64,000 nt of DNA from an uncultured Clostridia bacterium (GCA_947246685.1 CAMXSN010000006.1:3898-67897); one strand, 5' to 3'; shown: positions 8,637 through 35,409, counted from the first letter of the stretch. The notes: generated from the sequence alone by a model not told the origin. Translations and numbers: made by a program.

Positions 8637-8638
8637 AT

Positions 8639-12276: not shown

Positions 12277-12365
12277 AAAACCGCCTTATCTAATTTATAG
12301 CAAATGCTTTTATAACTTAATGATATCATAGATTTGCCATTTATTCAAGTAGCAATTAAAAAATA

Positions 12366-18860: not shown

Positions 18861-18894
18861 CAAAATAAACTCGCTGAACAGCGAGTTTATTTTG
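18861..18894 (-). terminator. strong bidirectional rho-independent terminator closing the large operon
   Basis: Perfect 14-bp stem caaaataaactcgc / gcgagtttattttg with a 6-nt loop and A/T-rich arms. Confidence 0.75.
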
Positions 18895-18919: not shown

Positions 18920-20347
18920 TCAAACTTCGTCGGCAGGCAACTCTTCCGAATTAGCGGACTGCTCTTTTGCAATAGCTCTGCGTTTATCGAGTTCTTCTTT
19001 GATAAACGCGAACCTCTCTCTGCTCAAATTCGCACGTCTCGAAAAAATTATCGAAACAAGGAATATCAATCCCGGCAGAACGCCAAGCACGATTCTTACG
19101 GCAAGCAAAGCGCCGTCAGGCTGGCGTATCACGCTGCCGTCCATGCTCTCCACGTATCCGAATGCACCGAGCACAGCCGATACGAGAGCTATGGAAATTC
19201 CGTTGGCGACCTTGTACATAAACTGCGTTATACCGTAATACGCGCCCTCTCTTCTCGAGCCGTTGACGTATTCGTCCACTTCGACTACGTCTGGCACGCT
19301 GGCGTACGGCAAAATCTGTATTGCGGACATTCCAAAGCCTGCGAAAACGCATAGAAGCACCGTACTCCAAACGATTTTTGCGGGCACGAATATCGCAAAC
19401 ACTAGCACAAAAGCCATATATGCGCACGCAAAAGTATAAACTTTGTGCTTGTTGAATTTTTCGCTCAATTTTACCCAAACGAACGACGACGCGATCGCGC
19501 ATACTAGAGGTATGGCGACAAACGCCATAGCCATAGCCCCGCCGCCAAATCCCAAAGAATCGTTGATGAAAAACATAAATACCGCCATTATTATATCGAA
19601 TCCTATCATACTAAGCAAATAACACAGCATTACGTTTCTAAATTCCGGCAATTTGAAAAACTCTTTGAGCGTAAGAAAAAATCCCTTGTCGTTGAGCTCG
19701 TTGTCGTCAACTCTTTCTTTGACGTTTGCGGCGCAAAGCAACATTATGACAATAGATATAAACGCAAACACACCGGCCGATAGCAGATATGCCTTCCTTG
19801 AACTGCCCAGCAACTGATAAAACAGGCTCTCCTGTCCGTCTGCAAACAACGCAAAAAGCGCCGCGCCCATAATTATACCGACGTTGGCAAGCGCGATTCT
19901 TATTCCGTTGAGAGAAGTGCGCTCGTCGTAATTGCCAGTCATATTGGCAGTTATCGCGTTATAGGGTATGTATACGACCGTCCATGCCGTATTGAAGAGC
20001 ATATAAGCCAGCGTATAATAAATCATCTTGCCGATTTGCGCTCCGTCGCCGAAAGGCGCAAGCCACAGCAGGATAAACGCCAATCCGTACGGCGCCGCGC
20101 CAAACAGCATATAGACTCTGCGCTTACCCCACTTGCTCTTAGTCTTGTCGGATATTCTGCCCATAAAATAATCCGTGAGCGCGTCCCAAAACTTGGCAAT
20201 CAAAAATACAGCCGAAGCCAACTCGGCTTTAAGCCCTCCCACGTTGACAAAAAAATAAAGCAGATAAAAAGAGATCGCCGCAAACATAATGTTGGCGGAC
20301 AAATCTCCTAATCCGTAAAAAAACTTTTCTTTGAATTTCAATTTCAT
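18920..20347 (-). CDS. GPH-family sugar:cation symporter (MelB/YicJ-like)
   Basis: Start MKLKFKEKFFYGLGD at 20347. GRISDKTKSKWGKRRVYML is the GPH signature loop. About 12 TM spans. It begins 35 nt after the AAA+ stop with no intervening terminator. Confidence 0.8.
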   Translation of the reverse strand: MKLKFKEKFFYGLGDLSANIMFAAISFYLLYFFVNVGGLKAELASAVFLIAKFWDALTDYFMGRISDKTKSKWGKRRVYMLFGAAPYGLAFILLWLAPFGDGAQIGKMIYYTLAYMLFNTAWTVVYIPYNAITANMTGNYDERTSLNGIRIALANVGIIMGAALFALFADGQESLFYQLLGSSRKAYLLSAGVFAFISIVIMLLCAANVKERVDDNELNDKGFFLTLKEFFKLPEFRNVMLCYLLSMIGFDIIMAVFMFFINDSLGFGGGAMAMAFVAIPLVCAIASSFVWVKLSEKFNKHKVYTFACAYMAFVLVFAIFVPAKIVWSTVLLCVFAGFGMSAIQILPYASVPDVVEVDEYVNGSRREGAYYGITQFMYKVANGISIALVSAVLGAFGYVESMDGSVIRQPDGALLAVRIVLGVLPGLIFLVSIIFSRRANLSRERFAFIKEELDKRRAIAKEQSANSEELPADEV

Positions 20348-20382
20348 AATTTCACTTCCGTGCATGCCAAGCGCTGACGCTA

Positions 20383-21537
20383 TCAATGCGTGTTGCGAAA
20401 ATTCTCGTAATCATCGAGCAACTCCGCGCTGATACTCGGCGGAATCTTGTTGAACGCTTTTTCAAACATATCCGCTCTGAGAGGGATAGGACTAGAGCTT
20501 CCGCTTTGCTGAATTTCTTCGAGAGCGCATCTGCAGGCTTCCTCCACTATTCCGCATATATCTGCGGCAGAATAATACGCCGTCGTGCGGATATTGCCCT
20601 TCTTATCTTGTTCCGCCGTGAACGTCTCGGTCATATCTACGATCTCTTCCACCGTGATATCTTCTAATTCTATACCGCTGAGTTTGCTCTCTATGATAGC
20701 TTTTTTCGCGCCGAAATCGGGAGGCGTGACGTGTATCAAATGAGAAAATCTCTTATATCTGAGATAAGCGGGATCTATCACGTCGGGACGGTTGGTCGCC
20801 GCGACCATTATTCTCTTGGAACCGTCCACGCCGAATCCGTTGATTCTCTGCAGAAGTTCGGTCGTAACGGCAGCCTTGTAATCTTTGGTATCCTGTGTAC
20901 GTTTGCTGAAAATAGATTCGCATTCGTCAACAAACAGTATCGCGCCGTCGGGACATGCGTCGATTTCTTCGAATATCTGTTTGACTGCCTGCTCGGATTC
21001 GCCGACATAGGACTTGAAGATATCGGCGGGCGTAACGATGAACAACGGTAATTTCATTGCGTTGGCGATAGCCTCGGCAAACATTGTCTTACCCGTACCG
21101 GGCGCGCCGTACATAAGCATACCCAGACCGCCTTCTATCTTGTAATATTCGAGTATCGACGGATTCTGCGCCATAAATATAAAACTTCTGACCAATGCTT
21201 TGACGTTGTCCAAACCCTTGACGTCGTCGAGAGTTGTATCGGGCACTTTGCTCTTGATGACCGAGCCGTAACCTGCCGCCGCGTCGCTGAGCTGCTTGTA
21301 AAACAACTTGTATTTCTCGCTCAGCAATCTGTCTGTGCTTCTCACGGAAAGCGTGCGCGCAATTTGCGCCGCCTGAGAATATTTGGCGCGCAATACGTTG
21401 CGTTCCTCGTCGGACAGATCTTTTTTATCCTTCCTGCCGTTTAGGACGGAACGTATCTCGTCTGTGACTTTGCGGAGCGAGTTTTCCAACTCTTCCACGC
21501 CGCTGTCTTCGGTATTTCTTTTTTTATCCGCTGCCAT
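20383..21537 (-). CDS. classical-clade AAA+ ATPase with helical N-domain (Vps4/katanin-like single cassette)
   Basis: Walker A GAPGTGKT, pore loop KSYVGES, Walker B ILFVDECE and sensor-1 VAATNRPD. SRH IDPAYLRYKRFSHLIHVTPPD has no Pro-Gly and so resembles the Vps4 RRRFE type. The ~120-aa charged helical N-terminus precedes the LDDVKGLDNVK linker. RBS GAGGAG. Confidence 0.85.
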   Translation of the reverse strand: MAADKKRNTEDSGVEELENSLRKVTDEIRSVLNGRKDKKDLSDEERNVLRAKYSQAAQIARTLSVRSTDRLLSEKYKLFYKQLSDAAAGYGSVIKSKVPDTTLDDVKGLDNVKALVRSFIFMAQNPSILEYYKIEGGLGMLMYGAPGTGKTMFAEAIANAMKLPLFIVTPADIFKSYVGESEQAVKQIFEEIDACPDGAILFVDECESIFSKRTQDTKDYKAAVTTELLQRINGFGVDGSKRIMVAATNRPDVIDPAYLRYKRFSHLIHVTPPDFGAKKAIIESKLSGIELEDITVEEIVDMTETFTAEQDKKGNIRTTAYYSAADICGIVEEACRCALEEIQQSGSSSPIPLRADMFEKAFNKIPPSISAELLDDYENFRNTH

Positions 21538-21547
21538 TGTCGTCTCC

Positions 21548-22267
21548 TCAGATTATGTCGTCTATATTGATATCCCCGTCGGAACCCTTGTCCGCGCCCG
21601 TATCGGGAGCCGCGGAAGGAGCGGCGGACGAATCTTCTGCAGTTTCCCCGTTCGCCTCTGCGCGGTATTTCGCAAGCTGCTTGGAAGCCTCGTTCTGATA
21701 GCCTGCCATGACGTCGTTGCTTTTCCCGTCCGATTTTGCCATTGACTTTTTGAGCTTTTTATCGAATCCGCTCATTGCCACCAACATAGCGTTGGCAATA
21801 TTGCCGTATCCGTTGACCATATCCATAATGGCTTTCATACGGTTACTGTTCATCTTGACGAATTTTTTGATCTTGCGTCTCTGTTTCATCCTGCCTCTTG
21901 CAGAATACTGCTTGTAATTGTCAAGGCTCATCATCTCGTCGATGAATTTGAACGTATCGTCCATTATGTTGATTGTCTGCGACAGCACCTGCATTGCCTC
22001 TTTCATGGAAAACATCATTCCCACGACGTTCTGCAAGCTGAAAGTAACTGTGTAAAACATCGTCAGCACTCTGGTGTTGAAATGATCGGCGCCGTATTGA
22101 CGCTCGCTCTCAACGACTTTGCGCGCCAGATTTTCCACGGATTTCTCCAATTCGGATTTCTTACCCTCTAAAATCTTACCGTCGAGTTTTCTGAGATTTT
22201 CTTTTTGCATTTCGCTGTATGGATTGGAGAGCCTTTCTCCTCTCTCTCTGTTTCTTTCTCTTGCCAT
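21548..22267 (-). CDS. 239-aa helical protein with basic N-terminus and acidic disordered C-tail ending DGDINIDDII (ESCRT-III/PspA-like architecture, unproven)
   Basis: RBS GGGAGAA. N-terminus MARERNRERGER, long predicted helices, then Ala/Pro/Asp-rich tail SSAAPSAAPDTGADKGSDGDINIDDII. No sequence motif I can assign to a family. Confidence 0.7.
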   Translation of the reverse strand: MARERNRERGERLSNPYSEMQKENLRKLDGKILEGKKSELEKSVENLARKVVESERQYGADHFNTRVLTMFYTVTFSLQNVVGMMFSMKEAMQVLSQTINIMDDTFKFIDEMMSLDNYKQYSARGRMKQRRKIKKFVKMNSNRMKAIMDMVNGYGNIANAMLVAMSGFDKKLKKSMAKSDGKSNDVMAGYQNEASKQLAKYRAEANGETAEDSSAAPSAAPDTGADKGSDGDINIDDII

Positions 22268-22282
22268 AATTTTTTCTCCCGA

Positions 22283-23797
22283 TTAAAACTGATTGTTGAT
22301 GATGTCATTTATCTGTATGTCGCCGTCCGCCTCTTCTAAATCTTCAGACTGCTCTTGCTTATCCGCCGCGTCTTCTTTGGGGGCGGAAGTCTTTCTTGCA
22401 AATTTACGGCGTCTTTCTTCCATTCTCTTTCTCATCTCTTCTTTTTCTTTTGCTCTGTCCTCGCTCTGCTTGTTTGCAGTTACGTATGTTTGCTCTTTCT
22501 CCATAAGTTTGTTGATAGTTGCAAACCGCTCGTCGGTCATAGCCATGTGTTTTGTCTGCAGAGCAACGTTTTCCATAATATTGTCATAATAACTTATAGC
22601 GAGCGTAATATCCGACTCGGACGCGCCGTAACTCAATATATCAAGAAACTGCCTGAAATCTATATATGCGAACATAGAATAAAACAAGTTGGGTTCTATC
22701 TGCTGATACATAGTGTAGATATGTTGCAATCTCTTGAATTTGGAGAGCAGTCTGCGCATAGCGAGCATATTATTGTTCATCATATTGATACTAGCCCTAT
22801 ATTGCTCTCTTTCCATCTCTCTGATTTCCATATCCTGTTCGAGCATGGTGATTTGAGTATCCGCTTCTTCTTCCATTATTTCGCCTTCGTCGAGAGCCGC
22901 TATTACGTCGGATATATTCTTCTGAATTTCCGCGATATCGGCGTTGATCTGTTTGACTTTCTCGTATGCGTCGTTCTGTACGCTGAACTGCTCTTCAAAT
23001 GATGCCAATCTTGCAAAGAACGCGTCGCCTTTTTCTTTGACGCTCGCAATCTTTGAGAATCCCGAGAATACGTCTTCCTGATATTTGACGATATCTTTAT
23101 CCTTTGCCTGATTTCTCTTATTGACCGCCTTGGTCAGTTCGCACCATTTGTCAGCCTCGTCCAGAGCCTGTCTGAGATGGTCGTTGACGGCGTCGAATAT
23201 CATATTCCTGCCTACGTAATCTCTCCACGCGAACAGACCGTAGGAGCTGTCGCCGAGCAAATTTGCGGCGGCGTCCGCAGCGTCCAACGACGAATTGTCA
23301 AACACGCCGTCAACTTTCTCTCTCAATTCTTTGAGCATATCTTTGGACGCGATAAGAATGCCTTTCTTGTATTCGCTCTTTTCCTCGTAAATCACGTTGT
23401 CTATTCCCATCATAGAATCGTCGATATATTTCAATACTTCTTTCTTGATGTCTGCCATATTCTTTTCTCCTTTTCCCAATTTTATCTTTTTGAAAATCTG
23501 TTCTTTTTTTTCTCTGTATCCGTCAAGTTTCAGCGCCGCGTTGTATTTTGAGAGCAGCGTAGCCATTTCCGTCAGCTCGAAAATAGCGTTTTTGAGATTG
23601 CCGTCGAATCCCTTGTTGATCCCTTCTCGCAAAAGCGACTCGATATCTTCTCTTATTTCGTCGGAAAAATCTTGACAGCGATTGCTGTCGTAACCGTTGT
23701 ATTCTATATCCTTAAACTTTCTTGCGTAACTTATTTTGTTGTCTTCGAGTATACCGACAAGCTTATCCAGCCTTATCAATTCTTCTCCTCCTCGCAT
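22283..23797 (-). CDS. 504-aa coiled-coil protein with acidic C-tail ending DGDIQINDIINNQF
   Basis: All-helical, charge-rich sequence. The likely true start is TTG 23779, preceded by GAGGAGGAG and overlapping the upstream TGA as TTGA. The ATG at 23797 is the track start. Confidence 0.7.
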   Translation of the reverse strand: MRGGEELIRLDKLVGILEDNKISYARKFKDIEYNGYDSNRCQDFSDEIREDIESLLREGINKGFDGNLKNAIFELTEMATLLSKYNAALKLDGYREKKEQIFKKIKLGKGEKNMADIKKEVLKYIDDSMMGIDNVIYEEKSEYKKGILIASKDMLKELREKVDGVFDNSSLDAADAAANLLGDSSYGLFAWRDYVGRNMIFDAVNDHLRQALDEADKWCELTKAVNKRNQAKDKDIVKYQEDVFSGFSKIASVKEKGDAFFARLASFEEQFSVQNDAYEKVKQINADIAEIQKNISDVIAALDEGEIMEEEADTQITMLEQDMEIREMEREQYRASINMMNNNMLAMRRLLSKFKRLQHIYTMYQQIEPNLFYSMFAYIDFRQFLDILSYGASESDITLAISYYDNIMENVALQTKHMAMTDERFATINKLMEKEQTYVTANKQSEDRAKEKEEMRKRMEERRRKFARKTSAPKEDAADKQEQSEDLEEADGDIQINDIINNQF

Positions 23798-24924
23798 ACG
23801 TCGGAGACGAATTTATCCGTCTCTTTTTTGGACGTTCTGCCTTTCTCCGAATATTTATAAAAATCGTCGTCGTAAAAAACGCACGAATTGTATCTGCCCG
23901 CTTTTATAAGCCGCTTAATATCCGCGTTGCCGTTGTCTTCCAAGCATTTGGCTATGCCGGCAATGGTTCTTTTTTTGAGATATTTATGTCCGCCGCGCGC
24001 ATTTACGAAACACATATAAACTCCGCTGTCGGGACAGTCGCTCACGTACTGCGCCACGGCGTTGGAATTCTTAAGCTCGTAAAATTTGCCGTCGATCTCT
24101 TTGTCGTCGTATGCTTTTGCCATTTTAAGACGCAGATCTCTGCCTATGCTTTCAAGCACGGAAAAGCCGTTGTCCTCCTCGGAAAACAGACGCACGCACT
24201 CTTCTTTTGAAAGTTTGAAAATGCCGAAAACAGGAGCGCGCTCCTCGTCCGTACAACTGCGCAATGTGGCAAAAGCCACGCTTGCCGCGTCCTCGTCCTC
24301 CGCCCGTTCGCCGTATAACAGATCAAATTTATCGTAATCTCCTCCGAGATCCGTTATCTTCTCTGCCAAAGCCGCGCGCAGTTCGTCAAGACTCTCATAT
24401 CCGTCGAATTGTCTCTTGACAGCGATCTCGCGCGGAACGTTTTTTAACATATCTATCAAATATCCTGCGCACTGCAGTTTGATATCCGTCAGTTCGTCGA
24501 CGTAACGGTCGTCTCCTTCGGGAGTGTGCACGCCTCTATGAACGTTGAAAAGCACGGCTTTGTAATAAAAATACGCCACGCGCCATCTCTCGGCGCTGCC
24601 CGTATTGAAATCCACGTAGCCCCTGTCATAGTAATACCCCATACGCATAAGCGCTGAAGGATGAAACATAAACGCCGCTTCATAACACAGATTGACCGCT
24701 TTATCGAGATATTTGAATCTCGTCCTCTTGTCTTCGTTGGAAGACGTGAGCCATTTGAAATAATATTCCTCGGAGCGAACGAACAGCTCTCTGTTGAGCG
24801 CATTGATCTCCAGCTCCGTGTCCGTATCGGGGAATACGTCCTTTTTGCAATGCGGACAGCACCACCTGCCGTCATACAGCTCGAGCGGTCTGTCTATATC
24901 TTGATTGCAATTTCCGCATTTCAT
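23776..24924 (-). CDS. 382-aa protein with N-terminal Zn-ribbon, one Sel1/TPR-like repeat and an unknown C-terminal domain
   Basis: RBS AAGGAG. MKCGNCNQ...CCPHCKK is a four-Cys ribbon. AAFMFHPSALMRMGYYYDRGYVDFNTGSAERWRVAYFYYKAV fits the Sel1 repeat pattern. Confidence 0.65.
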   Translation of the reverse strand: MKCGNCNQDIDRPLELYDGRWCCPHCKKDVFPDTDTELEINALNRELFVRSEEYYFKWLTSSNEDKRTRFKYLDKAVNLCYEAAFMFHPSALMRMGYYYDRGYVDFNTGSAERWRVAYFYYKAVLFNVHRGVHTPEGDDRYVDELTDIKLQCAGYLIDMLKNVPREIAVKRQFDGYESLDELRAALAEKITDLGGDYDKFDLLYGERAEDEDAASVAFATLRSCTDEERAPVFGIFKLSKEECVRLFSEEDNGFSVLESIGRDLRLKMAKAYDDKEIDGKFYELKNSNAVAQYVSDCPDSGVYMCFVNARGGHKYLKKRTIAGIAKCLEDNGNADIKRLIKAGRYNSCVFYDDDFYKYSEKGRTSKKETDKFVSDVCEEEKN

Positions 24925-24938
24925 ACTGTTATCTCCTT

Positions 24939-27900
24939 TTAAGACGCCTTTCGCTCGATCTTGAAATCAATAAGCGTGTTTGTGAATTCATAATTAACCG
25001 ACGATACCGATGCCGAGACCGAATAATTGCCTACCGCGGTCGGCGCGCTCGCAAGCAGCCTGCCCTTGGAATCGTAATACGCATATCCGTTTAACTTGAT
25101 ATCCGAAGAATACTCTTTGCCGTCCTTGACTATCGTAGGAATGCCGGACGCGGTGTTCCACTGCAACGCGACGCTCTTTTTATTGATGATAAAATCGCAC
25201 GATTCATATTTAACGTCATAATTATTTATTACGCCGCTCTCTGGCAAGCTCAATGTGAGAGTGTATTTGCCGGCGTTTTTAGCGCTTATCGCACTGCCGC
25301 CGTATATAGGCGTCCCGAAATCTTCTTTCTTATCCTTTGTTGCAAGACCGCTCAACGTAAAGCCGAAATTGCCGCCGGTCTTGCCGTCGTAAGTCTTTGC
25401 CGACGCAACGGCTTTCGCCACAAGAGTACGTTTGGTTATCTCAAAATCCTTGGAGTCGTCGCCGATAAGTTGATAATTATCCGCATAAACGCCGCCCAAA
25501 GCGACCTGCGCCGTATACTTGCCGACGTTGAGTTGGGCGGAAGTATACTTCAGCGAAGAGATCATTGCCGTTTGCTGATTTGCAACCGCGTTTGTTATAG
25601 AGGACACTCTTGCGTTGTGATTCTGACCGTCGTAAACAAACTTGGAGTATTTCTCGTCCCATACAACTCGTACTTGGCGTTTAACTATCGAATAGGACGT
25701 TTCAACGGGCGCGTCAAGTCTGTAATTGCCATCAATAGGAAGATCCGCGCCGACGGTATAGCCGTCTCCGACGTTGACGTTGTTTTCATACCCGTAATAA
25801 TCTATCGGCACGGGCTTATCTCTGTCCAGCGCGCCTATTACCATCAAGTCGGGGTGCTGCGCGACGCCGGCGTAAACCAATTGAACGTTCTCCGCCCATT
25901 TTGCCGTCACGGTAGCCCTTTCGATGACGTAATCGCAGTTGCGATTGACGATCGTATAATTGCCGTTTGCGGTGCTGACTCTAGCGACGTAAGCGCCTGC
26001 GTCAATACCGGCGCCCGTCACGTCGGTTTGAATTTGACCGTCTTTTGCTATACCTGTTACGGTAGCGTTAGGCGCCTTGTAACTTCCGTCGTATACGAAT
26101 TGAGTATTAGACCACACCGCCTCAACTTCTATGGGAAGTATCTCGTAGGCAAAACTTCCCCCCGAGCCTATTTTGTAACAGTCTGCTCCGACCGTAAGTT
26201 CTATATTCGCCGTGTATCTGCCGGCATCGGAATTGATATGATTGGATATAGCGTATTCGATACCGTCGCCTTCAATCAACTGCGACGTATCGTAATCTAC
26301 GTAAACTTCTTTATTCTCGCCGTCGTATACGTCCTGATCAAAATCCGTCCAGACAAAATCCAAAGCCTTTTTATCAACCGACACGTCTATGACGAAAGTC
26401 TCTTGCGAACTGAGAGAGGTTTCTTCGGAAGTCGCTACGACTATGACGGAAAACGCTCCGCTCATGCTCGGAAGAACTCTGTCGTATATCATTTGAGCGC
26501 CGCTCTGCATAAACGCGTCTTTGCAATACCATGAATACGACAAATCATATCCCGACTTAGGCGCCTTTGCCGCCGCCGACAGAATCAACGTATCGCCGTA
26601 AACGTACTTCTCTGCGTTGGGCGTAATTTTGCCGTCATAAGGTTTTTTCAGCGTCCATTCCGGTTCGACTGCCGTCGCGTTGTAATATCCGTTCGCATTG
26701 CGTCTGAGGTAATCGGCGAGACTTGAAAATTCGTTGACGCCGCATTTCCATTTGATATCGAATCCATCTCTCGACAAATCTTTGAGGAGCTCGTCCGCGC
26801 GGCTGAGAGCCGTCAATCTGTAATTGCGTATACTGCCGCCTGCCTCTATCGTCTTGATCGAATCGTCAAAACTGAACTTGGTATCGTTGCCGTCGCCTAT
26901 CTCCACGGCGAAAACTCTCTCGAAATTAACTTGGGCTTTAACGACGTTGTTAACTATGCTTACGCCTTGCAGATTTCCTTGAGACGTGACTATTTCTTTG
27001 AGCATATAGCCGTTGTTTTGATAATTCCAATACAAATCTTCGTCGTCGGACTTATCAGAATATTTTACGTAATCGACTTTGTCGCCGCAGAACGACAAAT
27101 CAAACTTATTGCCTTTTTTGCCTATCCACGTGGGAATATAGCTGTTGTCGGTCAATATCAAATCGTCTGCGTTGTAGGCAAACGTAACGTACGCTTCGTC
27201 GTCGGCAAGCCCCGTAGGATAAACGTTGTTTGCCAATACCACGCTCTGTCTTTCCGAATATAATTCCTGTCTGTAACTGTCGATGAGCTTTTTGTTTACG
27301 CCCAATTTCAACGTGTCGTTCAACTCGCCTAAATAATATTTCTCGTCGTACAGACGCATCCTTTTTTCTCCGACTATTTCGACGCTGGCTATGGATGCGT
27401 CGGCAAACAGAGCGTAACTGACAGCCGTTACGTCCTTGCCGTTGAAAGTTAGAGGTACGCGCACCTTATCGCTTCTGCCCTCGAGCACTCCGTCGGCAAA
27501 ATACGAATCGCTGGCTTGGTCGTATTTGAAAGCCAAACTCCTGTATTCGTCTACGTAACCCTGTCCGAGAAAACCGTAATCCATTATATATACCGAATAC
27601 GCTCCCGATATCGCCACCGTTAACGCGCTCATGGCTATAACGGTCGCTTTGACCCACGGTTTTTTCTTGAGTATCGGATAAAGCGCCGCTATCGTAACGG
27701 CAACAAAACTGACCGCATGCGCAACTGCGAACAAAGCCGTCGCCGCGCCTGTCGAATAGGTCAGCTCCCCGCCGCTCATAACTCCCAACGTAGAACACGC
27801 GAATATAAACGTCAAAGCAAGATAAACTATCCACACCGTGAGCGAATATCTAAAACGGAAATTGGTAAACACTATGCCCACGATAAACAAAGCGTCAAAG

Positions 27901-28097
27901 ATCAGATTGAACACTGGCAGCACGATAAAACGCGCGTCGAAGCCCGATACAGCACACACTATCAGCAACACGAGGTCGCACACCGCCGCGGTAATGGAAG
28001 CGATGAGCAAAAATAGCTTGCTGCCGCCGAACCGCTTGCGGTTGGCGGAAGAATAATCTATATTTTCGCTGCCTGAATATAAGCCGTTTCTATTCAT
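24939..28097 (-). CDS. 1052-aa polytopic membrane protein with a large extracytoplasmic region ending in six MBG/YDG-type repeats
   Basis: RBS AAGGAGG and an ATGA overlap with the upstream gene. Five hydrophobic helices lie in aa ~29-170. The last 477 aa form six ~75-85-aa repeats, each with xVxW...(V/T)YDG...G(K/R)Y...NY...(F/Y)xIxK. Confidence 0.75.
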   Translation of the reverse strand: MNRNGLYSGSENIDYSSANRKRFGGSKLFLLIASITAAVCDLVLLIVCAVSGFDARFIVLPVFNLIFDALFIVGIVFTNFRFRYSLTVWIVYLALTFIFACSTLGVMSGGELTYSTGAATALFAVAHAVSFVAVTIAALYPILKKKPWVKATVIAMSALTVAISGAYSVYIMDYGFLGQGYVDEYRSLAFKYDQASDSYFADGVLEGRSDKVRVPLTFNGKDVTAVSYALFADASIASVEIVGEKRMRLYDEKYYLGELNDTLKLGVNKKLIDSYRQELYSERQSVVLANNVYPTGLADDEAYVTFAYNADDLILTDNSYIPTWIGKKGNKFDLSFCGDKVDYVKYSDKSDDEDLYWNYQNNGYMLKEIVTSQGNLQGVSIVNNVVKAQVNFERVFAVEIGDGNDTKFSFDDSIKTIEAGGSIRNYRLTALSRADELLKDLSRDGFDIKWKCGVNEFSSLADYLRRNANGYYNATAVEPEWTLKKPYDGKITPNAEKYVYGDTLILSAAAKAPKSGYDLSYSWYCKDAFMQSGAQMIYDRVLPSMSGAFSVIVVATSEETSLSSQETFVIDVSVDKKALDFVWTDFDQDVYDGENKEVYVDYDTSQLIEGDGIEYAISNHINSDAGRYTANIELTVGADCYKIGSGGSFAYEILPIEVEAVWSNTQFVYDGSYKAPNATVTGIAKDGQIQTDVTGAGIDAGAYVARVSTANGNYTIVNRNCDYVIERATVTAKWAENVQLVYAGVAQHPDLMVIGALDRDKPVPIDYYGYENNVNVGDGYTVGADLPIDGNYRLDAPVETSYSIVKRQVRVVWDEKYSKFVYDGQNHNARVSSITNAVANQQTAMISSLKYTSAQLNVGKYTAQVALGGVYADNYQLIGDDSKDFEITKRTLVAKAVASAKTYDGKTGGNFGFTLSGLATKDKKEDFGTPIYGGSAISAKNAGKYTLTLSLPESGVINNYDVKYESCDFIINKKSVALQWNTASGIPTIVKDGKEYSSDIKLNGYAYYDSKGRLLASAPTAVGNYSVSASVSSVNYEFTNTLIDFKIERKAS

Positions 28098-29752
28098 TTC
28101 GCTGCCTCCTTGTCGGAATTGCCCTTAGGCGCGCTGAGATAACCGCTGCTCTTGGCGGTATCTTTATTAAATATAAGCACAGATTCGTCGATCATAAACA
28201 TAATGCAATCTTCGTCTTCCTTGCAATATTTCTTTTTGTTGAGACTGCCTATTCTCTTGACCAAAGACAGCATTCCCGAATATTTGCGATATAGCTTATT
28301 ACCCTGTTTGTATTCCGCGTCGTCTATCGCGTCTATGCCCAATTTGGTTATTTTGCAGAAATCGCAAACGTAATCGGTCGAATTAGTTTCGGAGTAAAAC
28401 GATCTTCCGCAACATGAACAACGCGCAATTTTATCTTTAGGCACCAACGTCATTCTGTCTCTGACAAAGGCAAGATTCTTAGTATATCTAGCTATTCCGT
28501 CTTCGCAGACGTATACGACCTCGGGATGCGGACAGCGTTTGCATTTTCTCACTCCGCCGTCAAGCACGGCAGTATCGTCCTCGCAAACGTATTTGACGCA
28601 TCTGCCGGCAAGTCTCGCGTTCTCCGAGCAACTAATCCTGAGCAAGTGCGAAGTAAACGTTCCGCCGGATTTTATCTGTCTTATTATCTCTTCGCTAAGA
28701 CCGAGCCCTTGATGGGCAGGATTTATCAACGCTGTTTTCTCTACTCCGTCAAATACGTATTTGATCTTATTGAACTCGATAAGAGTAGATTTTTTGCGGC
28801 AGCTGTTGCAATAAAGACTCAACCTGCCTCCTATGCCCAATATCGCTTTGAGCGCGACCTTGCCGTCTAGTCTTACGTCGTAGTTATCTTTTCTCCACTG
28901 AAAATGCAGGACGTTGAGAAGAGACAGATTTAGGCACGTCAAATCAACGTTGTCGTTGGGTCCCTTCTCCACCATAATTCCCACGGCGTTCTCGTCTCTG
29001 CCGTCGGCTAACACGACGTAATCCGACAAATCCGCTCCTTGAGAATTACCGTCGGGATATACGAGTTTGTCCAAAGCATTGACGACGGTATCGGTAAGTT
29101 CCGCGCTGTTTTGCATAAGTTCATCTTCTTCCCTTTCCGAATCGAACGTGGAAAGATACGAGTTGATGACTTCGGCTTCTTCCTTGCCGTAAGGAAGTAT
29201 TTTTTTACCTACTTTTCTAAAAAACACTTTGCCTAGCACCGGCACCGCTTCGCCCGTTCCGTCGGTGATCTCCAACCTCAACGAGGCTCCGTAAACGTCT
29301 TCCAAACTCTCCGACTCGTCGCCGCGTCTAATATCGAATACGTAATTATCAAAGAAGCTCGATAGCACGTTGTTTATCAGCGCACAATGACTTTCTATCA
29401 ACTCGTTGGATATTACGTGCCTTCTGGGGCTGTATTCGACGATAGAATAATTGCGGTGAAAATGTTCCTTGACCGACTCGACGAACATAAGCCATTCGGC
29501 GGTGTCGTTTTTGACGCTCTCGCCTCTGAACATTCCAAACCATGACGCCCCGTTGTCGCCCATTACCGCATTGAACGAACCGTCGTCGCGCGCAGCCGCG
29601 CCGCGAGCCAATATAAATTCATGCGAGGGAGTAACTATCCTGTCTGCGTCCGCCGACAAAACCGATCCTTCTTTTATGCAATTTTCGCGGTACAATTTCA
29701 CCACGCTGTCAAACGTCTTGCCGTATTCGCTTCCAATATAAATCTTAGCCAT
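28094..29752 (-). CDS. 552-aa hypothetical protein with several CxxC Zn-ribbon-like pairs in the C-terminal half
   Basis: RBS GGAGGCGGT. CNSCRKK, CKRCPHPE and CSCCGRSF...CDFC. No other recognisable motif. Confidence 0.65.
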   Translation of the reverse strand: MAKIYIGSEYGKTFDSVVKLYRENCIKEGSVLSADADRIVTPSHEFILARGAAARDDGSFNAVMGDNGASWFGMFRGESVKNDTAEWLMFVESVKEHFHRNYSIVEYSPRRHVISNELIESHCALINNVLSSFFDNYVFDIRRGDESESLEDVYGASLRLEITDGTGEAVPVLGKVFFRKVGKKILPYGKEEAEVINSYLSTFDSEREEDELMQNSAELTDTVVNALDKLVYPDGNSQGADLSDYVVLADGRDENAVGIMVEKGPNDNVDLTCLNLSLLNVLHFQWRKDNYDVRLDGKVALKAILGIGGRLSLYCNSCRKKSTLIEFNKIKYVFDGVEKTALINPAHQGLGLSEEIIRQIKSGGTFTSHLLRISCSENARLAGRCVKYVCEDDTAVLDGGVRKCKRCPHPEVVYVCEDGIARYTKNLAFVRDRMTLVPKDKIARCSCCGRSFYSETNSTDYVCDFCKITKLGIDAIDDAEYKQGNKLYRKYSGMLSLVKRIGSLNKKKYCKEDEDCIMFMIDESVLIFNKDTAKSSGYLSAPKGNSDKEAAK

Positions 29753-29763
29753 ACCGCCTCCGC

Positions 29764-32571
29764 TCAGTTATCCATGGACAGAATTTCTTTTATATCCGCC
29801 ACTTTGTCAGATTCTTTCCTTAGATTGTTGCAGAAAGACTCGCCGTTGTCGTGTTTGAAATCCCACGACGCCTTGATATACGCCGCAAACGTCCTTGCAA
29901 TCACGGGATATAGATAACCTCTTTCGTGATTTTGTTCGCACTTGGGACAACGCGCAATCCATTTCTCGTCAAACGATATTACGTGAGGTCTGGGAGAACA
30001 CTGCGAATAATCGCACGATCCGCACAGTTCAACGCTGGCTTTACCTACGCCGTACCTGCACTTCTGCGGACATGACGAACGGCTGGAACAGCTTGCGCAC
30101 AGACTCTTGAGTTCAACTGCGGAAATATTGCGATTGAGCGCATAAGCGTTGAGCACGCTGCACTTACCTTTGAGCTCGCTCTTGAATCTCTGACAGTGCA
30201 ACATCGAGCATATCTTGGAACAGTAATAATCTCTGTCGCCTTTATCTCCGCTGCTGCACAGCGATCCTCTGTCCGTATCCGTCTTGGATATACACGTGTA
30301 TCCGCCGTCGCCCACGCTTCTGCCGAATACCGAACCGCACGTGCCGCACTTGAATTCGTACACGTTTATCTCTTCCATAACCGTGCCTCGGGGATCATCC
30401 TGAATACACTGCCTTTTTGCTATACAGAAAAGATTGTTTTTCTTCTTGCGCGCATCGTATTCTTCTTTTGTATAAAGCGCCACTTTGCCGCAAGCGGGAC
30501 ATCTGAGCGCAACCATACGCTCGTTGTTACTGCCCGCGATAATCGTCGCGTCGCCGCTGTTGCTGGAAAGCAATCCTATACTGTTGAAGTACGCAAGAGC
30601 AAAACCTTCGAGCTTATTCATATCTGCAAACGAATATATCTTGACGTCGCTAGACTGTCCGAGACGGAATATTCTGCCTATTCTCTGATCCATAGACAAC
30701 GGATCGGGCGTGACCTGGAAGTTGATGATGATTCTGCTGTCCTGCAAGTTTACGCCCTCGGTAAACGACGGGTCGGTAACGAGTAACACCGCGTCTTCTT
30801 TGGATGTAAATTCGTCTATAACCTGTCTTTTGTTATCGTCTCTGCCTATTAATATCCTTGATGAAAATTCGCCGTCCGCGGCAAGTTCCGCACCGACTTT
30901 TTCCCATTGACGGTACCCTTTGCTTGTCTTGGGCAAGTCGTAATCGAAAAATACCAACGCTCTCTCGCCCGGATGTTCGCGCAGAACGGATTTCATCTCC
31001 TCGAATTTATACGCAAACGTATCTTTATCAGCCGCGGTGAAGATAAATTTGTTGTCGCATTCTCCCGCGGCTTTTCTTGAGAATTGCTCCCAATAAAATT
31101 TAAGCGAATTTTTCTTTTCAAAAACTTTTTCGTCCCCGAAAGATTTTAGTCCGCCCAAAATGTTGGGCACCAATATCTCAGCATATTTCTCCTGAGCGTC
31201 GCCGTGCAAGGAAATTTCCTGCGCATAGTCTTTCAGCGAATATGCTCTGCCGTCGACGTTGAGCGCTCGATTCCCGTTGATTACGTCCAGACTTGCTTCC
31301 ATGTCGCAACCGTCTCCGTATTTGAACCTTATTATCTTAGGAGCGTTTTCTTTGACAGGGAAGAAATATCTGTTGAAAACGAATCTGGTCTTGGTAAGTT
31401 CGTTGGGCTGACGGATCATTATGGTGCGCAACACGCCGTTGTGATAAGCGCTCGCTACTCTTTTGAGCACCTCGGAGCGTATTGGACCGCTGTCTTTAAG
31501 AAACTCTTCTCTTAGCAATTGTTTTTCGCCCTGAGTATAAGATTGAAATTTCTCGTATTCTCCCTTTGCTTTCAAAAAAGCTTCAAACTGAGCTGAGTAA
31601 TTGTTGTCTACTTCAAACTTCTTAACCGCGGTGATAAACTCTGCCACGGTATTCGCGCCTCTGCACACGTTCTGCTTGTAATAGAGTTTCTCTTTTCTGT
31701 ATTCGTCAGTGCGCTCTTTATCCTCTTTTATATCGAAATCGTCGGGATTGCCGCCCTTACATCTGATAAAATACCACAGTCTGAACATCTTTTCCAGATT
31801 GCCGGAATGAGGCGTAGCGGAAAGAAGCACGCAGTAAGTGCTGTTGGCTTTTTTCTTTGTCTGCATAAGCAAAGACAGTAGTTTCATAGCCTTTGCATAT
31901 CTGCCTTCTTCCGCGCACAGATGATGAGCCTCGTCGACGACAACGACGTCGAATAACACGTTTTTAATCGCGCTTTCTCGCCAGTTGACGAAATCCTCCG
32001 CCTTGACGATAAACGGCTTTGTCGGTCTGACGGTCGCTCCGTCCGACAAAGTCTCGCACTCGCCGAACTCCGCGTCGGCGACTCCGACAAGCACGCCTTT
32101 GCCCAGTCCGAATTTATTTTCAAGCACGTCTATCCAGCTGTCGTAAACCTGCGACGGCACGACCAACAACAGCGATTTCATCTTACCTCTGACGGCAAGC
32201 TCGCTCAGCACTGCGCACGCCTCAAAAGTTTTGCCGCTGCCCACAACGTCCGCGAGCAGACCGAAGCCGCGCAGCTCCTTGAGAAAATGCGTCGCCGCAA
32301 GTTGCTGATGTCTCAATATTACCTGATTGCTGTTGACGCTCCTATGCACATGCGATTTGGTTATTCCGTAATCTCCGCCGTCGGATTCGTATACTTCCGG
32401 CGCTATTTTCAACGCGGCGAAATCGTCGTATCTGTCCAGTTCTTCGGCGCAGTGGGTAAGCTCGGCTATCCGCGCGTCGAAGGGGCGTATCTCACCTGCA
32501 ATCTTCGACCTCTGAATATCCCTGTCAAAAGCTCCGTCCGTACATTTAAGAGTAAATCTTTTCTTTTTCAT
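29764..32571 (-). CDS. SNF2-family (RapA/HepA-like) helicase/translocase with ~200-aa Cys-rich C-terminal module
   Basis: Start ATG 32571, 5 nt after GGAGGGG; the track start 32589 is a TTG. Motifs LLADVVGSGKTFEA (I), VVVDEAHH (II), LLSATPHSG (III), TEGVNLQ and QRIGRIFRLGQ (VI). The tail holds about 21 Cys, including CPAC, CGTC, CASC, CGSC and CPKC. Confidence 0.85.
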   Translation of the reverse strand: MKKKRFTLKCTDGAFDRDIQRSKIAGEIRPFDARIAELTHCAEELDRYDDFAALKIAPEVYESDGGDYGITKSHVHRSVNSNQVILRHQQLAATHFLKELRGFGLLADVVGSGKTFEACAVLSELAVRGKMKSLLLVVPSQVYDSWIDVLENKFGLGKGVLVGVADAEFGECETLSDGATVRPTKPFIVKAEDFVNWRESAIKNVLFDVVVVDEAHHLCAEEGRYAKAMKLLSLLMQTKKKANSTYCVLLSATPHSGNLEKMFRLWYFIRCKGGNPDDFDIKEDKERTDEYRKEKLYYKQNVCRGANTVAEFITAVKKFEVDNNYSAQFEAFLKAKGEYEKFQSYTQGEKQLLREEFLKDSGPIRSEVLKRVASAYHNGVLRTIMIRQPNELTKTRFVFNRYFFPVKENAPKIIRFKYGDGCDMEASLDVINGNRALNVDGRAYSLKDYAQEISLHGDAQEKYAEILVPNILGGLKSFGDEKVFEKKNSLKFYWEQFSRKAAGECDNKFIFTAADKDTFAYKFEEMKSVLREHPGERALVFFDYDLPKTSKGYRQWEKVGAELAADGEFSSRILIGRDDNKRQVIDEFTSKEDAVLLVTDPSFTEGVNLQDSRIIINFQVTPDPLSMDQRIGRIFRLGQSSDVKIYSFADMNKLEGFALAYFNSIGLLSSNSGDATIIAGSNNERMVALRCPACGKVALYTKEEYDARKKKNNLFCIAKRQCIQDDPRGTVMEEINVYEFKCGTCGSVFGRSVGDGGYTCISKTDTDRGSLCSSGDKGDRDYYCSKICSMLHCQRFKSELKGKCSVLNAYALNRNISAVELKSLCASCSSRSSCPQKCRYGVGKASVELCGSCDYSQCSPRPHVISFDEKWIARCPKCEQNHERGYLYPVIARTFAAYIKASWDFKHDNGESFCNNLRKESDKVADIKEILSMDN

Positions 32572-32585
32572 TATCCCCTCCGCCG

Positions 32586-34538
32586 TCAATCGGCTCCTTC
32601 CACGTCGAATTCCTCGACGCCTTGGAATTGAAGAACTATGTCTTTGTATCTGGCAAACTTAACGTTTGTCGGGTCGTCGGCTTTTCTTACGGCTATGGTG
32701 TCGTAAGCTCCGTTCTTGGATACGTTGTTGCGTATGAAAGGCTGCGCTCTGCCGTCTCCGTCGATCTTAACTCCCTCAAGGAAGTATAACACGCCTTTTA
32801 TCTGCACCGGTATGGGCGATTTTTTGCCTTCTTTGCAATAATAAAACAGTATCTTGCCTTTGCTCTTACCGCCCGACACCACTCGCAGACCTATCTTCGT
32901 CTGCATCTTCACGCGCTGTTCGGAGTCAGGTTCGCCTATCACGTATACTCCCGACGATTCCGTCGTAGAGAAAATCTCCTCATTGTCTACCGACCCCGAC
33001 CATCTGTCCATATATTTGAGGCTGGATTCGGTATAATACGTTCCTCCGTCGGGAGGAAGTATCTGACCTCTTTTGAGGAAAATGTCCAGTATCTTATAGT
33101 ATTTATCTCCGCGCTTGCGATATTGCCAAGTACCGTAAGACAATGCTACCGCCGTCTTGATCTCGTAATTATTGAGCGCAACGATAGCGCCGCCTACCGC
33201 GGGCGCAAACAAAGAATCTTCGTATGAAAGTATCCTGAATCCGTCGTCTCTGTTCTCGTAATCGTCAAACGTGACGACGTCGACGTTCAATCCCGCTTTG
33301 CGTAGTTTGGAGCGCAGATAACCTATCAGCCCGTAGGTCTCCGTAACTCCTCCCGACAAGAGAAGTTTGTCCACGTCTTTATTGATACTTCTGTTCAACT
33401 CCTCGATAATATAATCCGCTATCTTAGCCGCCACGCCGCAATCGCCGTCGATACCCACCGCCTTGCAAAAGTCATCTCTCGTCAACATTCTCTGCACCGT
33501 CACGTCTCTATAGAGCGATATAGGCGCTCCGTCTGGAAACACGTTGTCGTAAGTTGCGTCGGGAAGAGACAGCGCCGTCTTGACCTTTTTGATCTCGGTC
33601 ATAAACAAAAACTGTTTAGAATGCAATCCCCGCTCGGCGATATATCCGTCTTCTCCCGACGGCGGCGCGCCCGGAGTCTCTCTCGCCCCGATGCTGTCTT
33701 CTATATAATCTCTTAACGCAATGTCAAAATCGTTGCCGCCTATCTCCATAGGCTCGTTGTGACCGTCAACGCCGTCCACAAGCACGCTCTTGACCTTTCC
33801 GCCCGAAAGACTGAGTTTTGCAACGGAAATATCCTCTTCGCCCATATCGACGATAATAACGCCCTCTCCGCCGTCCAAAATACCTCTGTGAAATGCAAAA
33901 AGTCCCAGCGCTCTCGTAGATGACATTACCTTCTTAACATTAGAGCCGACCGAACGCTCTACCAAACGCGTCAACTCCTCTATGTATTCCGCGCCCGCTT
34001 TGGCAGGATAAATCAGCGAATAATCGACGCTGTCGAATGCTAGATTTCTCTGCGCTTGCAATCTCTCTATCGCAGGCAAAACAGTCTTAGAAAATAGATA
34101 ATCAAAAAACTCTTCGCACACCTGCATCGGCGTCCTGTCTGCGCAAAAAGTCATGTCGAGATCTTTGGCAAGCATCAGATTTTCGGAAATCTTGCGTTTT
34201 GTCGGAAAATAAAATTTGGGGAAATCTCTGCCTTCTCGATAACATACGCGATTGCTATCGCATACGGCTTTATCCGATCTTTTCAGAAGCAAAGACAGCA
34301 GCGTTTTGATCTTGACGACAGTAATAAAAGGTCTGTCGGTGCCTTTATACGCTTCGTCTCCGAACAGCCATCTGCCGTTGTCCTCGTCGTAATACGCTAT
34401 CGCCGACACGACCGCGCTGCCCGTGACTTCCCTGGGCGCCAACTTTCCGTATACCGCCTTATTGGATTCTTTATAGGCAAAAGCAACCTTTACTTTGTCG
34501 CTGCCGACGTCGATTGCAACCTCTAAATTACCTTGCAT
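32586..34538 (-). CDS. divergent Hsp70-like (actin-fold) ATPase with beta-rich C-terminal domain, no lid
   Basis: RBS AAAGGAG. Motifs AIDVGSDKVKVAF (phosphate-1), IIVDMGEEDISV (phosphate-2), EIGGNDFD, LLLSGGVTETYGL and PAVGGAIVA. The C-terminal ~190 aa resemble an SBD-beta (TAVALSYGTW...ILPP...). No EEVD. Confidence 0.8.
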   Translation of the reverse strand: MQGNLEVAIDVGSDKVKVAFAYKESNKAVYGKLAPREVTGSAVVSAIAYYDEDNGRWLFGDEAYKGTDRPFITVVKIKTLLSLLLKRSDKAVCDSNRVCYREGRDFPKFYFPTKRKISENLMLAKDLDMTFCADRTPMQVCEEFFDYLFSKTVLPAIERLQAQRNLAFDSVDYSLIYPAKAGAEYIEELTRLVERSVGSNVKKVMSSTRALGLFAFHRGILDGGEGVIIVDMGEEDISVAKLSLSGGKVKSVLVDGVDGHNEPMEIGGNDFDIALRDYIEDSIGARETPGAPPSGEDGYIAERGLHSKQFLFMTEIKKVKTALSLPDATYDNVFPDGAPISLYRDVTVQRMLTRDDFCKAVGIDGDCGVAAKIADYIIEELNRSINKDVDKLLLSGGVTETYGLIGYLRSKLRKAGLNVDVVTFDDYENRDDGFRILSYEDSLFAPAVGGAIVALNNYEIKTAVALSYGTWQYRKRGDKYYKILDIFLKRGQILPPDGGTYYTESSLKYMDRWSGSVDNEEIFSTTESSGVYVIGEPDSEQRVKMQTKIGLRVVSGGKSKGKILFYYCKEGKKSPIPVQIKGVLYFLEGVKIDGDGRAQPFIRNNVSKNGAYDTIAVRKADDPTNVKFARYKDIVLQFQGVEEFDVEGAD

Positions 34539-34600
34539 ATATCTCCTTTTTCATATCGAATTTTGACGGTTGAGAAAAAACCGCAAAATCTTACGCATAC

Positions 34601-34629
34601 AGTATAGCACACGCTCATAAGGTTTTCAA
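34601..34629 (-). promoter_or_regulatory. strong sigma-A-type promoter of the nine-gene operon
   Basis: Minus strand reads TTGAAA - 17 nt - TATACT with a TG at the extended -10 position (GTGTGCTATACT). It lies ~60 nt upstream of the Hsp70-like ATG. Confidence 0.65.
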
Positions 34630-34730: not shown

Positions 34731-34759
34731 AAAATTTAACCGTCGAAAAAACGACGGTT
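34731..34759 (-). terminator. rho-independent terminator insulating the operon from the upstream gene
   Basis: aaccgtcg-aaaaaa-cgacggtt hairpin, followed on the minus strand by AAATTTTT. Confidence 0.65.
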
Positions 34760-34787: not shown

Positions 34788-35270
34788 TCAAATACAAATT
34801 CCGTGCAATACGCTACCTGCCAGCAAATGCGCGGAAATAATTTCCTGCATCTCGGCACCCTTGACGTAATCTGCAAGTTCGCACAGCGTCACGCTCATTG
34901 AATTGTGTAATTCCAACAGTCTGTACATAGACTGTTTAAGCGGCATCTTCTGCACTCCGACAAATACTTCGTTTGCGAAGTTTGCCATAACGGATACCCT
35001 TATACGGTTTTTTGTCGCTACGTTCAAGATAAATTCTACGTTTTTGCGGTTACGCGAAACGAATATCCTGTCAAACTGAGCAATTATCGCCGTCATCTCC
35101 TTGCAACATCTGCAAAAGTCGGCGCACTTATCCGTCATATACACGGGAATGGGATATTGAAACAACGCCGTCCGCGTCTTTCCGGCGCCCACTCCGAGCG
35201 CGTCGTATTCTCTGTTCATATCCGCTATTTGTCCTTCGTCGGCTATCATGTCAAATTCGTTATCCTGCAT
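34788..35270 (-). CDS. hypothetical protein (160 aa)
   Basis: Clean ORF followed by its own terminator. No recognisable motifs. Contains CADFCRCC. Confidence 0.5.
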   Translation of the reverse strand: MQDNEFDMIADEGQIADMNREYDALGVGAGKTRTALFQYPIPVYMTDKCADFCRCCKEMTAIIAQFDRIFVSRNRKNVEFILNVATKNRIRVSVMANFANEVFVGVQKMPLKQSMYRLLELHNSMSVTLCELADYVKGAEMQEIISAHLLAGSVLHGICI

Positions 35271-35409
35271 ACTTTCTCCCCTATCAAGTCAATTCGATAT
35301 CATTAATATTTATTAAACAAAATATACTTTTATGCCGCGCGGGCGTTAAAAATAATAAATTGTCTTGCGTCGGTTGCAATTTGCTAAGATATTGATTATA
35401 ATAATTACT

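Follow-up and report, generated by a model that had tools for sequence, protein, structure and literature searches.

Which process could require an Hsp70-fold protein, a SNF2-family translocase and an AAA+ ATPase to be encoded side by side with a large membrane and surface protein? This question is raised by a gene cluster on the minus strand of a 64,000-nucleotide stretch of DNA, here called the window, from an uncultured Clostridia bacterium (GCA_947246685.1, CAMXSN010000006.1:3898-67897). A sequence-only reading had described the locus as a single unit of nine genes that combines three classes of nucleoside triphosphatase with a membrane component and matches no named system. All nine open reading frames (ORFs) are present and co-directional, and we refer to them in order as g1 to g9 (Table 1); the three classes and the membrane component are indeed encoded. 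Comparison with related genomes shows that g1 to g8 are a real, old and co-inherited gene set. We tentatively favour the reading that they specify an undescribed membrane-anchored conflict system, directed against phage or foreign DNA and acting on nucleic acids in uncultured Clostridia, and hold this at slightly less than an even chance.

Relatives were collected through homologues of g1 (169 clusters at 90% identity), a genome-collection scan on g5 (22 loci) and a metagenome scan on g1 (23 loci), together with look-ups of divergent g7 and divergent g3 homologues. In three independent collections, g1 to g8 (20383-34538) are colinear in about 45 loci of uncultured Clostridia, and their order is kept in every sufficiently long contig, down to 23-29% identity for g1 to g3. 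The named hosts, Candidatus Borkfalkia, Candidatus Coproplasma and "uncultured Christensenella", are Christensenellales-type Clostridia. The co-occurrence across genomes that had been proposed as a check is thus found for g1 to g8, and the nine-gene unit has to be shortened by one. In close relatives, g9 is 86-89% identical and lies 0-3.6 kilobases from g8, with other genes intervening in some; in one of them (L009) an ABC transporter is inserted between the two. Beside distant copies of the cluster g9 is absent and other genes follow g8. Synteny therefore rules out g9 as a member, and the conserved unit is the eight genes g1 to g8. Within the window, g9 is probably co-transcribed with the cluster.

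The Borkfalkia-type loci and all deep-branching lineages carry ten genes, with two extra genes between g6 and g7 (L018:12632-19151; also in L019-L021, L023-L025 and L049-L053). One encodes a protein of about 650 amino acids (aa) in which an HExxH motif is invariant; its SprT-like matches are weak (E 0.014 in three of ten members). The other, found in L018-L025 and L049-L053, encodes a protein of about 1500 aa that combines DUF4011, a superfamily 1 (SF1) helicase (AAA_11/12) and an MTES_1575 nuclease, and matches the PADLOC models PDC-S37 (1.9e-116) and Hhe (2e-50). Both genes are absent from the window, where the best tblastn match to the helicase-nuclease has an E-value of 0.25. Because they are missing there and present in all deep branches, the ten-gene form appears to be ancestral and the eight-gene form of the window's clade reduced. 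The earlier statement that no nuclease is visible is correct for this clade and does not extend to the ancestral form. At least 15 species of this clade have the eight-gene form intact, with identities of 52-85%.

A metagenomic variant (L042:236-17963) is circularly permuted, with the order g6, g7, g8, g1, g2, g3, g4, and the same genes stay together. Its g6 homologue is fused to FtsK_alpha and an FtsK/SpoIIIE ATPase, a fusion seen in this locus only, and the locus additionally contains a CvpA-like membrane protein (5368-6195) and an RNA_ligase-family gene (8146-8766). As the position after g6 holds either the HExxH protein and the helicase-nuclease, an FtsK fusion or nothing, it behaves as a variable slot for DNA motors and nucleases. 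The divergence of the cluster proteins (52-81% identity) compares with 48-64% for the adjacent alanine racemase and aminotransferase. The protein g4 stands apart: at 26-37% identity to its relatives in the same genomes, and with lengths of 918-2273 aa, it is the fastest-evolving member of the cluster. The close clade also shares the chromosomal position, with g9 and the aminotransferase gene downstream.

The junctions from g1 to g9 measure 14, 11, -4, 14, -4, 15, 10 and 35 nucleotides (nt), as previously listed, when g2, g6 and g9 are started at the internal codons with the best ribosome-binding sites (ATG 32571, TTG 23779 and ATG 20347, respectively). The longest-ORF starts of these three genes give overlaps of 4, 22 and 4 nt instead. 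The start of g2 is ambiguous between TTG 32589, which overlaps the g1 stop by 4 nt, and ATG 32571, which has the better site (GGAGGGG); that of g6 is likewise ambiguous (ATG 23797 or TTG 23779). The genes g3 and g4 meet in an ATGA overlap. GGAG-type ribosome-binding sites precede g1 to g8 by 5-10 nt, so the expectation of such a site at every gene fails only at g9, where it is weak (ACGGAAG). The predicted promoter and the upstream terminator beside it were both recovered, and the closing hairpin is present with a stem of 21 rather than 14 base pairs (bp). None of 200 shuffled sequences was as stable as this hairpin, which, being symmetric, is probably bidirectional.

Between 18000 and 36000, terminator-like consensus matches number 34 against 20.4 ± 4.3 in shuffled sequence and promoter-like matches 37 against 26.1 ± 4.4, both in excess; none of the internal terminator-like sites comes near the strength of the boundary hairpin. 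An antisense ORF of 354 aa inside g4 (25470-26534, plus strand) has an implausible composition rich in Arg, Ile and Val and is an opposite-strand artefact, not a gene. Rfam and tRNA scans detected no structured RNA in or beside the cluster.

The first of the three ATPases, g1, had been called Hsp70-like, which stands by fold and is marginal by sequence. An AlphaFold2 model computed from an 80-sequence alignment (predicted local distance difference test, pLDDT, 89.8; predicted template modelling score, pTM, 0.87) was compared with the PDB using Foldseek, and the best 50 matches were all Hsp70 or Hsp110, with E-values down to 4e-22 over 620-690 aligned columns. The model comprises a nucleotide-binding domain and an enlarged beta-sandwich substrate-binding domain and has no helical lid. 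Against Pfam PF00012, g1 scores 14.9 bits (E 0.008), under the 20.6-bit cut-off, so that its sequence does not place it in the family. A 30-sequence profile reached Hsp70 in the PDB only at E 0.05, and hhalign against an E. coli DnaK sequence returned a probability of 0.6%. The Hsp70 identity of g1 is confirmed by fold, that is, by a structure model and not by sequence. Throughout the family, whose 169 or more clusters at 90% identity all derive from metagenome-assembled genomes of Clostridia, the phosphate-2 loop reads DMGEED(IS) in place of the canonical DLGGGT(FD), and ATP hydrolysis by g1 may be altered or lost. In the window, this loop lies at 33820-33850 (residues ~230-240), and its Glu234 is nearly invariant.

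The second ATPase, g2, is a SNF2-family member with intact motor motifs (GSGKT, DEAH and QRIGR). It scores above the Pfam cut-offs both for SNF2-rel_dom PF00176 (1.6e-11, 44.3 bits; cut-off 24.9) and for Helicase_C PF00271 (3.4e-9, 37.4 bits; cut-off 23.5). In its C-terminal tail of about 250 aa we counted 22 Cys, close to the roughly 21 first noted, and all orthologues have 22-23. Among PADLOC models, the SNF2 domain resembles BrxH, DrmD, HmaA and DpdE most; the scores of its best named relatives, DrmD, BrxH, DpdE and RapA, all fall far under the family cut-offs. The third, g8, is the most conserved protein of the cluster (61-81% identity) and has intact Walker A, Walker B, YVG pore loop and sensor-1 motifs. 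Its classification as a classical AAA+ ATPase holds, but the label "Vps4-like" is not specific: NCBIfam models rank CDC48 (148.9 bits) above PAN (133.6) and CdvC (129.7), all far under the equivalog cut-offs, and Pfam Vps4_C reaches 19.4 bits, under its cut-off of 21.3. The closest PDB profile matches are VAT and the p97 D2 domain (~2e-59), and the N-terminal region of about 95 aa has no match in this search.

The membrane protein g4 has five transmembrane segments between residues 29 and 169 by hydropathy, and Y[DA]G units at residues 487, 591, 669, 742, 822 and 903, spaced by 73-104 residues. Five helices and six repeats had been predicted from the start; the assignment of the repeats to Pfam MBG misses E 0.01 in the window copy and is reached only in relatives (MBG_2/MBG_3). 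For g3, g5, g6 and g7, searches of Pfam, NCBIfam, PADLOC, PHROGs and PDB sequence profiles gave no significant match. An exhaustive profile search shows that g3 belongs to a family of at least 221 clusters at 50% identity, with members of ~540-600 aa, none of them fused to another domain. Since the sole invariant positions in a 71-sequence alignment are Cys/His zinc ligands, g3 looks like an adaptor rather than an enzyme; Pfam and PDB searches for a concealed enzyme, per member and by profile, were empty, and this candidate was rejected. In g5, the zinc ribbon is supported (Pfam Zn_ribbon_11 matches 4 of 13 family members), and the Sel1-like part remains marginal, with Sel1 proteins retrieved by PDB profile search at E ~0.1 only. 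Alignments reveal an invariant F-x-DDD motif in the C-terminal domain of g5.

PDB profile searches with g6 returned coiled coils only. The AlphaFold2 model of g7 is of moderate confidence (pLDDT 65) and places helices at residues 16-58, 63-113, 123-177 and 185-211; Foldseek found nothing below E 1 for this model, with an Asgard ESCRT-IIIB structure at E 7. Comparison of g7 with PspA and Snf7 by hhalign gave probabilities below 1%. Neither Foldseek, hhalign nor the PDB profile search supported g7 as an ESCRT-III/PspA homologue with g8 as its Vps4, and this candidate was discarded, although with a model of such confidence the negative is not absolute. Also discarded was the idea that g6 and g7 are paralogues (hhalign probability 3.5%).

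The C-terminal I-x-D-I tail of g7 is invariant in all clades, in the forms GDINIDDI[IV], GVGDISDIL or SDIDDIV. A similar tail ends g6 in the window (DGDIQINDIINNQF), in L015, L017 and L022 and in the FtsK fusion of L042 (EIADIDDITR), and the g6 proteins of ten-gene forms have a different conserved tail, IPLSDNDK. In the window, the acidic-hydrophobic tails of g7 (DGDINIDDII, 21548-21580) and g6 (22283-22330) are near-identical; the g6 tail belongs to one motif class in eight-gene forms and to another in ten-gene forms, and the g7 tail stays constant. In all loci g8 lies directly downstream of g7. The succession of a helical, scaffold-like protein, a disordered linker and a terminal peptide ahead of an AAA+ gene with an intact pore loop suggests that g8 may recognise and thread the tails of g7 and g6.

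No description of the gene set was found in the searchable full-text literature, and PADLOC has no models for g1 and g3 to g7. PADLOC, NCBIfam, Pfam and PHROGs likewise hold no match for the set, in agreement with the sequence-only reading, and in our judgement the cluster falls outside all systems described so far. Membership in DISARM, BREX, Dpd, Zorya, ietAS and CBASS-TRIP13 was rejected, as only generic ATPase cores match, with scores far under the cut-offs. The top named relatives of g2 are DrmD of DISARM, BrxHI/HII of BREX and DpdE of Dpd (PADLOC E-values of 1e-30 to 1e-20). However, g2 reaches 106.7 bits against the 610-bit cut-off of DrmD, and no other Drm match occurs among the nine proteins. 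From BREX, PglX, PglZ, BrxC and BrxL are missing and only the g2 helicase core matches BrxHI/HII; more generally, the cluster has no methyltransferase, PglZ, DrmA/B/C or DpdA-type partners, and the 22-Cys tail is specific to the g2 family. The cluster follows a logic similar to that of Zorya, in that a cytoplasmic motor of the SNF2 family, acting on DNA, is coupled to a membrane-embedded part that bears a long coiled coil or another extended element. It differs in lacking the MotAB-like ZorA/ZorB and ZorC (no PADLOC matches) and in the weak similarity of g2 to ZorD (PADLOC 1e-10; NCBIfam 21 against a 1500-bit cut-off), and Zorya itself has no Hsp70-fold protein, AAA+ unfoldase or extracellular stalk of immunoglobulin-like (Ig) repeats. 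The match of g8 to IetA has an E-value of 1.5e-31 in PADLOC but attains 98 bits against a 510-bit cut-off in NCBIfam, and no IetS-like protein is encoded.

Other likenesses concern single components. The ~1500-aa gene of the ancestral form has the same architecture as Hhe and PDC-S37. Hhe is described as a stand-alone gene; its counterpart here belongs to a fixed ten-gene operon and is missing from the window. Like Vps4/CdvC with ESCRT-III, g8 is a single-cassette AAA+ ATPase beside a helical protein with a flexible linker and a conserved C-terminal peptide, but it scores 130 bits against the 650-bit CdvC cut-off, below CDC48 and PAN, and the tail motif D-I-x-I-D-D-I differs from the MIM1 and MIM2 motifs. 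The ancestral form recalls eukaryotic Cdc48/p97-Wss1/SPRTN crosslink repair in combining a Cdc48-D2-like AAA+ protein, an HExxH/SprT-like protein, a helicase and an Hsp70; against this likeness, the SprT similarity is weak, g8 has no Cdc48-type N-domain, a membrane/surface component is present, and the HExxH protein and helicase are missing from the window form. Hsp70-like proteins with nucleotide- and substrate-binding domains occur in predicted conflict systems, namely CoCoNuT type III (CnuD) and GTPase-centric systems (PMC11090510; PMC7159879). These were the only systems with Hsp70-like components that the literature search brought up. Like the cluster, they place an Hsp70-fold protein that is divergent and whose ATP site is degenerate among several genes with nucleic acids as their predicted target (PMC11090510; PMC7159879). 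The partners, McrBC in one case and a GTPase with tubulin in the other, are wholly different, as the cluster has no McrB GTPase, McrC, tubulin or GAP1-type GTPase.

Our preference for a conflict system follows from the g2 helicase core, whose nearest relatives belong to BREX, DISARM and Dpd, from the kinship of the ancestral helicase-nuclease with Hhe and PDC-S37, from the variable cassette after g6 and from the hypervariable surface protein g4. A variable cassette at one position is a pattern typical of conflict systems. Hsp70-like proteins in predicted conflict systems provide a further precedent (PMC11090510; PMC7159879). On this reading, the products of g1 to g8 would form one multi-ATPase complex whose target, nucleic acid or nucleoprotein, is engaged at the membrane's cytoplasmic side. 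Crossing the membrane five times, g4 would serve as sensor and anchor and display its fast-evolving stalk of Ig-like MBG repeats outside, and the zinc-ribbon adaptor g3, translationally coupled to g4, would dock at its cytoplasmic side. Together, g3, g5 and the 22-Cys tail of g2 would recruit the g2 translocase and g1 as a motor module. The coiled coils of g6 and g7 would form a scaffold, with the slot after g6 accepting a DNA-motor or nuclease cassette and standing empty in the window's clade. By gripping the disordered linkers and the acidic-hydrophobic C-terminal tails of g7 and g6, the g8 unfoldase could then disassemble or reset the scaffold, by analogy with Vps4 on ESCRT-III tails, katanin on tubulin tails and TRIP13 on HORMA proteins. 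A more specific version, which we consider doubtful, is a transmembrane surveillance machine: events at the cell surface, phage docking for example, would be signalled by the hypervariable Ig-repeat stalk of g4 to an assembly in the cytoplasm made up of an Hsp70-fold protein, a SNF2 translocase, scaffolds whose tails are read by a Cdc48-like ATPase, and a plug-in slot.

Several observations weigh against a conflict system. The deep, colinear conservation and the position shared in the close clade resemble vertical inheritance, whereas a patchy, mobile distribution is usual for defence systems. The neighbourhood contains neither a defence island nor a prophage, integrase or transposase; its genes serve sugar metabolism and housekeeping and have the same guanine-plus-cytosine (GC) content. 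Searches for relatives of g1 in the IMG/VR and INPHARED phage collections and of g3 among the PLSDB plasmids found none, and the lack of PADLOC models for g1 and g3 to g7 counts on the same side. The window's clade has lost its sole recognisable nuclease, yet all eight genes remain intact in those 15 or more species, so the core must have an output of its own. Moreover, the ATPase activity of g1 is uncertain given its departure from the Hsp70 phosphate-2 loop, and the proposed contacts of g8 with the tails and of g3 with g4 are read solely from the gene order and the conserved motifs. The main alternative is a vertically inherited housekeeping machine of Christensenellales-type Clostridia that couples the envelope to chromosome or nucleoprotein remodelling, in which the Hsp70, the SNF2 motor and the Cdc48-like unfoldase, ancestrally with a SprT-like protease and the helicase-nuclease, might clear proteins off DNA near the membrane. 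The deep colinearity free of mobile-element signatures, the lack of phage and plasmid relatives in the collections searched, the kept chromosomal position, the housekeeping flanks, the native GC, the divergence close to that of neighbouring genes, the proximity of g8 to CDC48 D2, the accessory protein with its invariant HExxH and weak SprT-like matches, and a core that persists without its nuclease module all favour such a machine. It leaves a giant, fast-evolving extracellular Ig-repeat protein unexplained for DNA repair or chromatin, the helicase-nuclease is nearest to defence candidates, and the cassette after g6 is variable and dispensable; we regard it as rather unlikely, though a serious competitor.

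An apparatus for protein export or surface assembly, loosely like type VII secretion, is much less probable. In it, g7 and g6 would be helical substrates or cargo with a C-terminal export signal that load the g4 stalk, driven by g8 or by the FtsK/EssC-like domain of L042. The signal-like conserved motif of the helical proteins, the FtsK/SpoIIIE-family ATPase fused to g6, the polytopic g4 with its long extracellular stalk and the chaperone fold of g1 can be read this way. The window, however, encodes no EssC/EccC, WXG100, EssB or EsaA-type component and no channel-forming protein, g4 has five transmembrane helices only, the FtsK-type domain is confined to the fusion in one locus, and the SNF2 translocase and ancestral helicase-nuclease are nucleic-acid enzymes. 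That the window clade's cluster is a decaying remnant, non-functional since the loss of its helicase-nuclease effector, is more improbable still: it is true that this clade lacks two genes that every deep branch has, those for the HExxH protein and the helicase-nuclease, but the eight ORFs are intact, motor motifs, zinc ligands and tail motifs are preserved, and the degree of conservation across the clade points to purifying selection. Chance juxtaposition, or several independent operons, is scarcely credible. The weak internal terminator-like and promoter-like matches could be cited in its favour, and it is effectively refuted by the same gene order amid different flanks in about 45 loci, by overlapping or short (10-15 nt) junctions and by the permuted L042 variant, which retains the same set.

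The cluster region has a GC content of 0.43-0.51 against 0.41-0.49 in the flanks, and the flanking genes are those of a resident chromosome (signal peptidase, DUF711, alanine racemase, class IV aminotransferase, glycoside hydrolases and fucose isomerase), consistent with the earlier impression that base composition resembles the surroundings. The flanks contain no integrase, transposase or phage genes, and a PHROGs search of the cluster proteins returned nothing significant. An origin as prophage, plasmid or island was rejected on the native GC, the metabolic flanks and the absence of phage or plasmid relatives. At the 5' end of the cluster, 34788-37068 holds two orphan ORFs of 160 aa (same strand) and 567 aa (divergent) with no Pfam match; the 160-aa ORF occurs in none of the fetched relative loci. 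Farther away, a low-GC stretch (9386-13661, 35-39%) contains minus-strand ORFs of 230, 230 and 431 aa without Pfam match and an ORF with a Peptidase_C39-like domain (10094-11470). A tRNA-Gly(CCC) gene lies at 61019-61092; about 1 kilobase further on, GC falls sharply to 27% (62001-64000); this stretch, which may be foreign or rich in intergenic DNA, includes a 297-aa ORF (62482-63375) that lacks a Pfam match.

Table 1. Genes and predicted transcription signals of the cluster, in window coordinates.
Feature	Position	Strand	Description	Basis
Upstream hairpin	34738..34759	-	Terminator-like hairpin belonging to the upstream gene; delimits the unit at its 5' end	8-bp stem then U-run; -12.3 kcal/mol, z -4.6
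Promoter	34601..34629	-	Sigma-70-type, TTGAAA-17-TATACT, TG-extended, ~60 nt upstream of the g1 start	Consensus scan, 10/12 matches plus TG; predicted from position
g1	32586..34538	-	Hsp70-fold ATPase, 650 aa	AlphaFold2 model and Foldseek
g2	29764..32589	-	SNF2-family translocase, 935-941 aa depending on start	Pfam and motifs
g3	28094..29752	-	Orphan, 552 aa; conserved N-terminal domain and multi-zinc-ribbon C-terminal half	Stop overlaps g4 start
g4	24939..28097	-	Membrane protein, 1052 aa; N-terminal five-helix bundle, large predicted extracellular part with six MBG-like Y[DA]G repeats	
g5	23776..24924	-	Orphan, 382 aa; N-terminal zinc ribbon (CxxC...CPxC), marginal Sel1/TPR-like stretch, C-terminal domain	
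g6	22283..23797	-	Coiled-coil protein, 504 aa; small conserved N-terminal domain, charged linker, C-terminal tail motif ...DGDIQINDIINNQF	
g7	21548..22267	-	All-helical protein, 239 aa; four long helices, low-complexity Ser/Ala/Gly linker, C-terminal tail ...DGDINIDDII	
g8	20383..21537	-	Single-cassette classical AAA+ ATPase, 384 aa	Pfam AAA 3.9e-32
g9	18920..20386	-	GPH-family sugar:cation symporter, 488 aa, as first called	TIGR00792 4e-74, above cut-off
Closing hairpin	18861..18894	-	Intrinsic-terminator hairpin closing the unit	Perfect 21-bp stem, -26 kcal/mol, z -9.2

Five of the eight proteins, g3 to g7, are true orphans with families of considerable size. Eight-gene, ten-gene and FtsK-fusion variants all occur naturally and offer a ready-made dissection of the system. 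Should the products of g1 to g8 act as a single complex, they would be the first case in bacteria of an Hsp70-fold ATPase, a SNF2 remodeller and a Cdc48/PAN-like unfoldase being joined to a cell-surface protein, and the ancestral form would add a SprT-like protease and a helicase-nuclease to that set. A surveillance machine of the kind outlined above would bring chaperone, chromatin-remodeller and segregase chemistry together in one membrane-bound bacterial complex without a described counterpart. If the system serves defence, it would represent a mechanism coupled to the cell surface in gut Clostridia that are abundant but uncultured; if it serves housekeeping, it would point to a connection of the envelope with the chromosome in these bacteria that parallels eukaryotic Cdc48-SPRTN biology.

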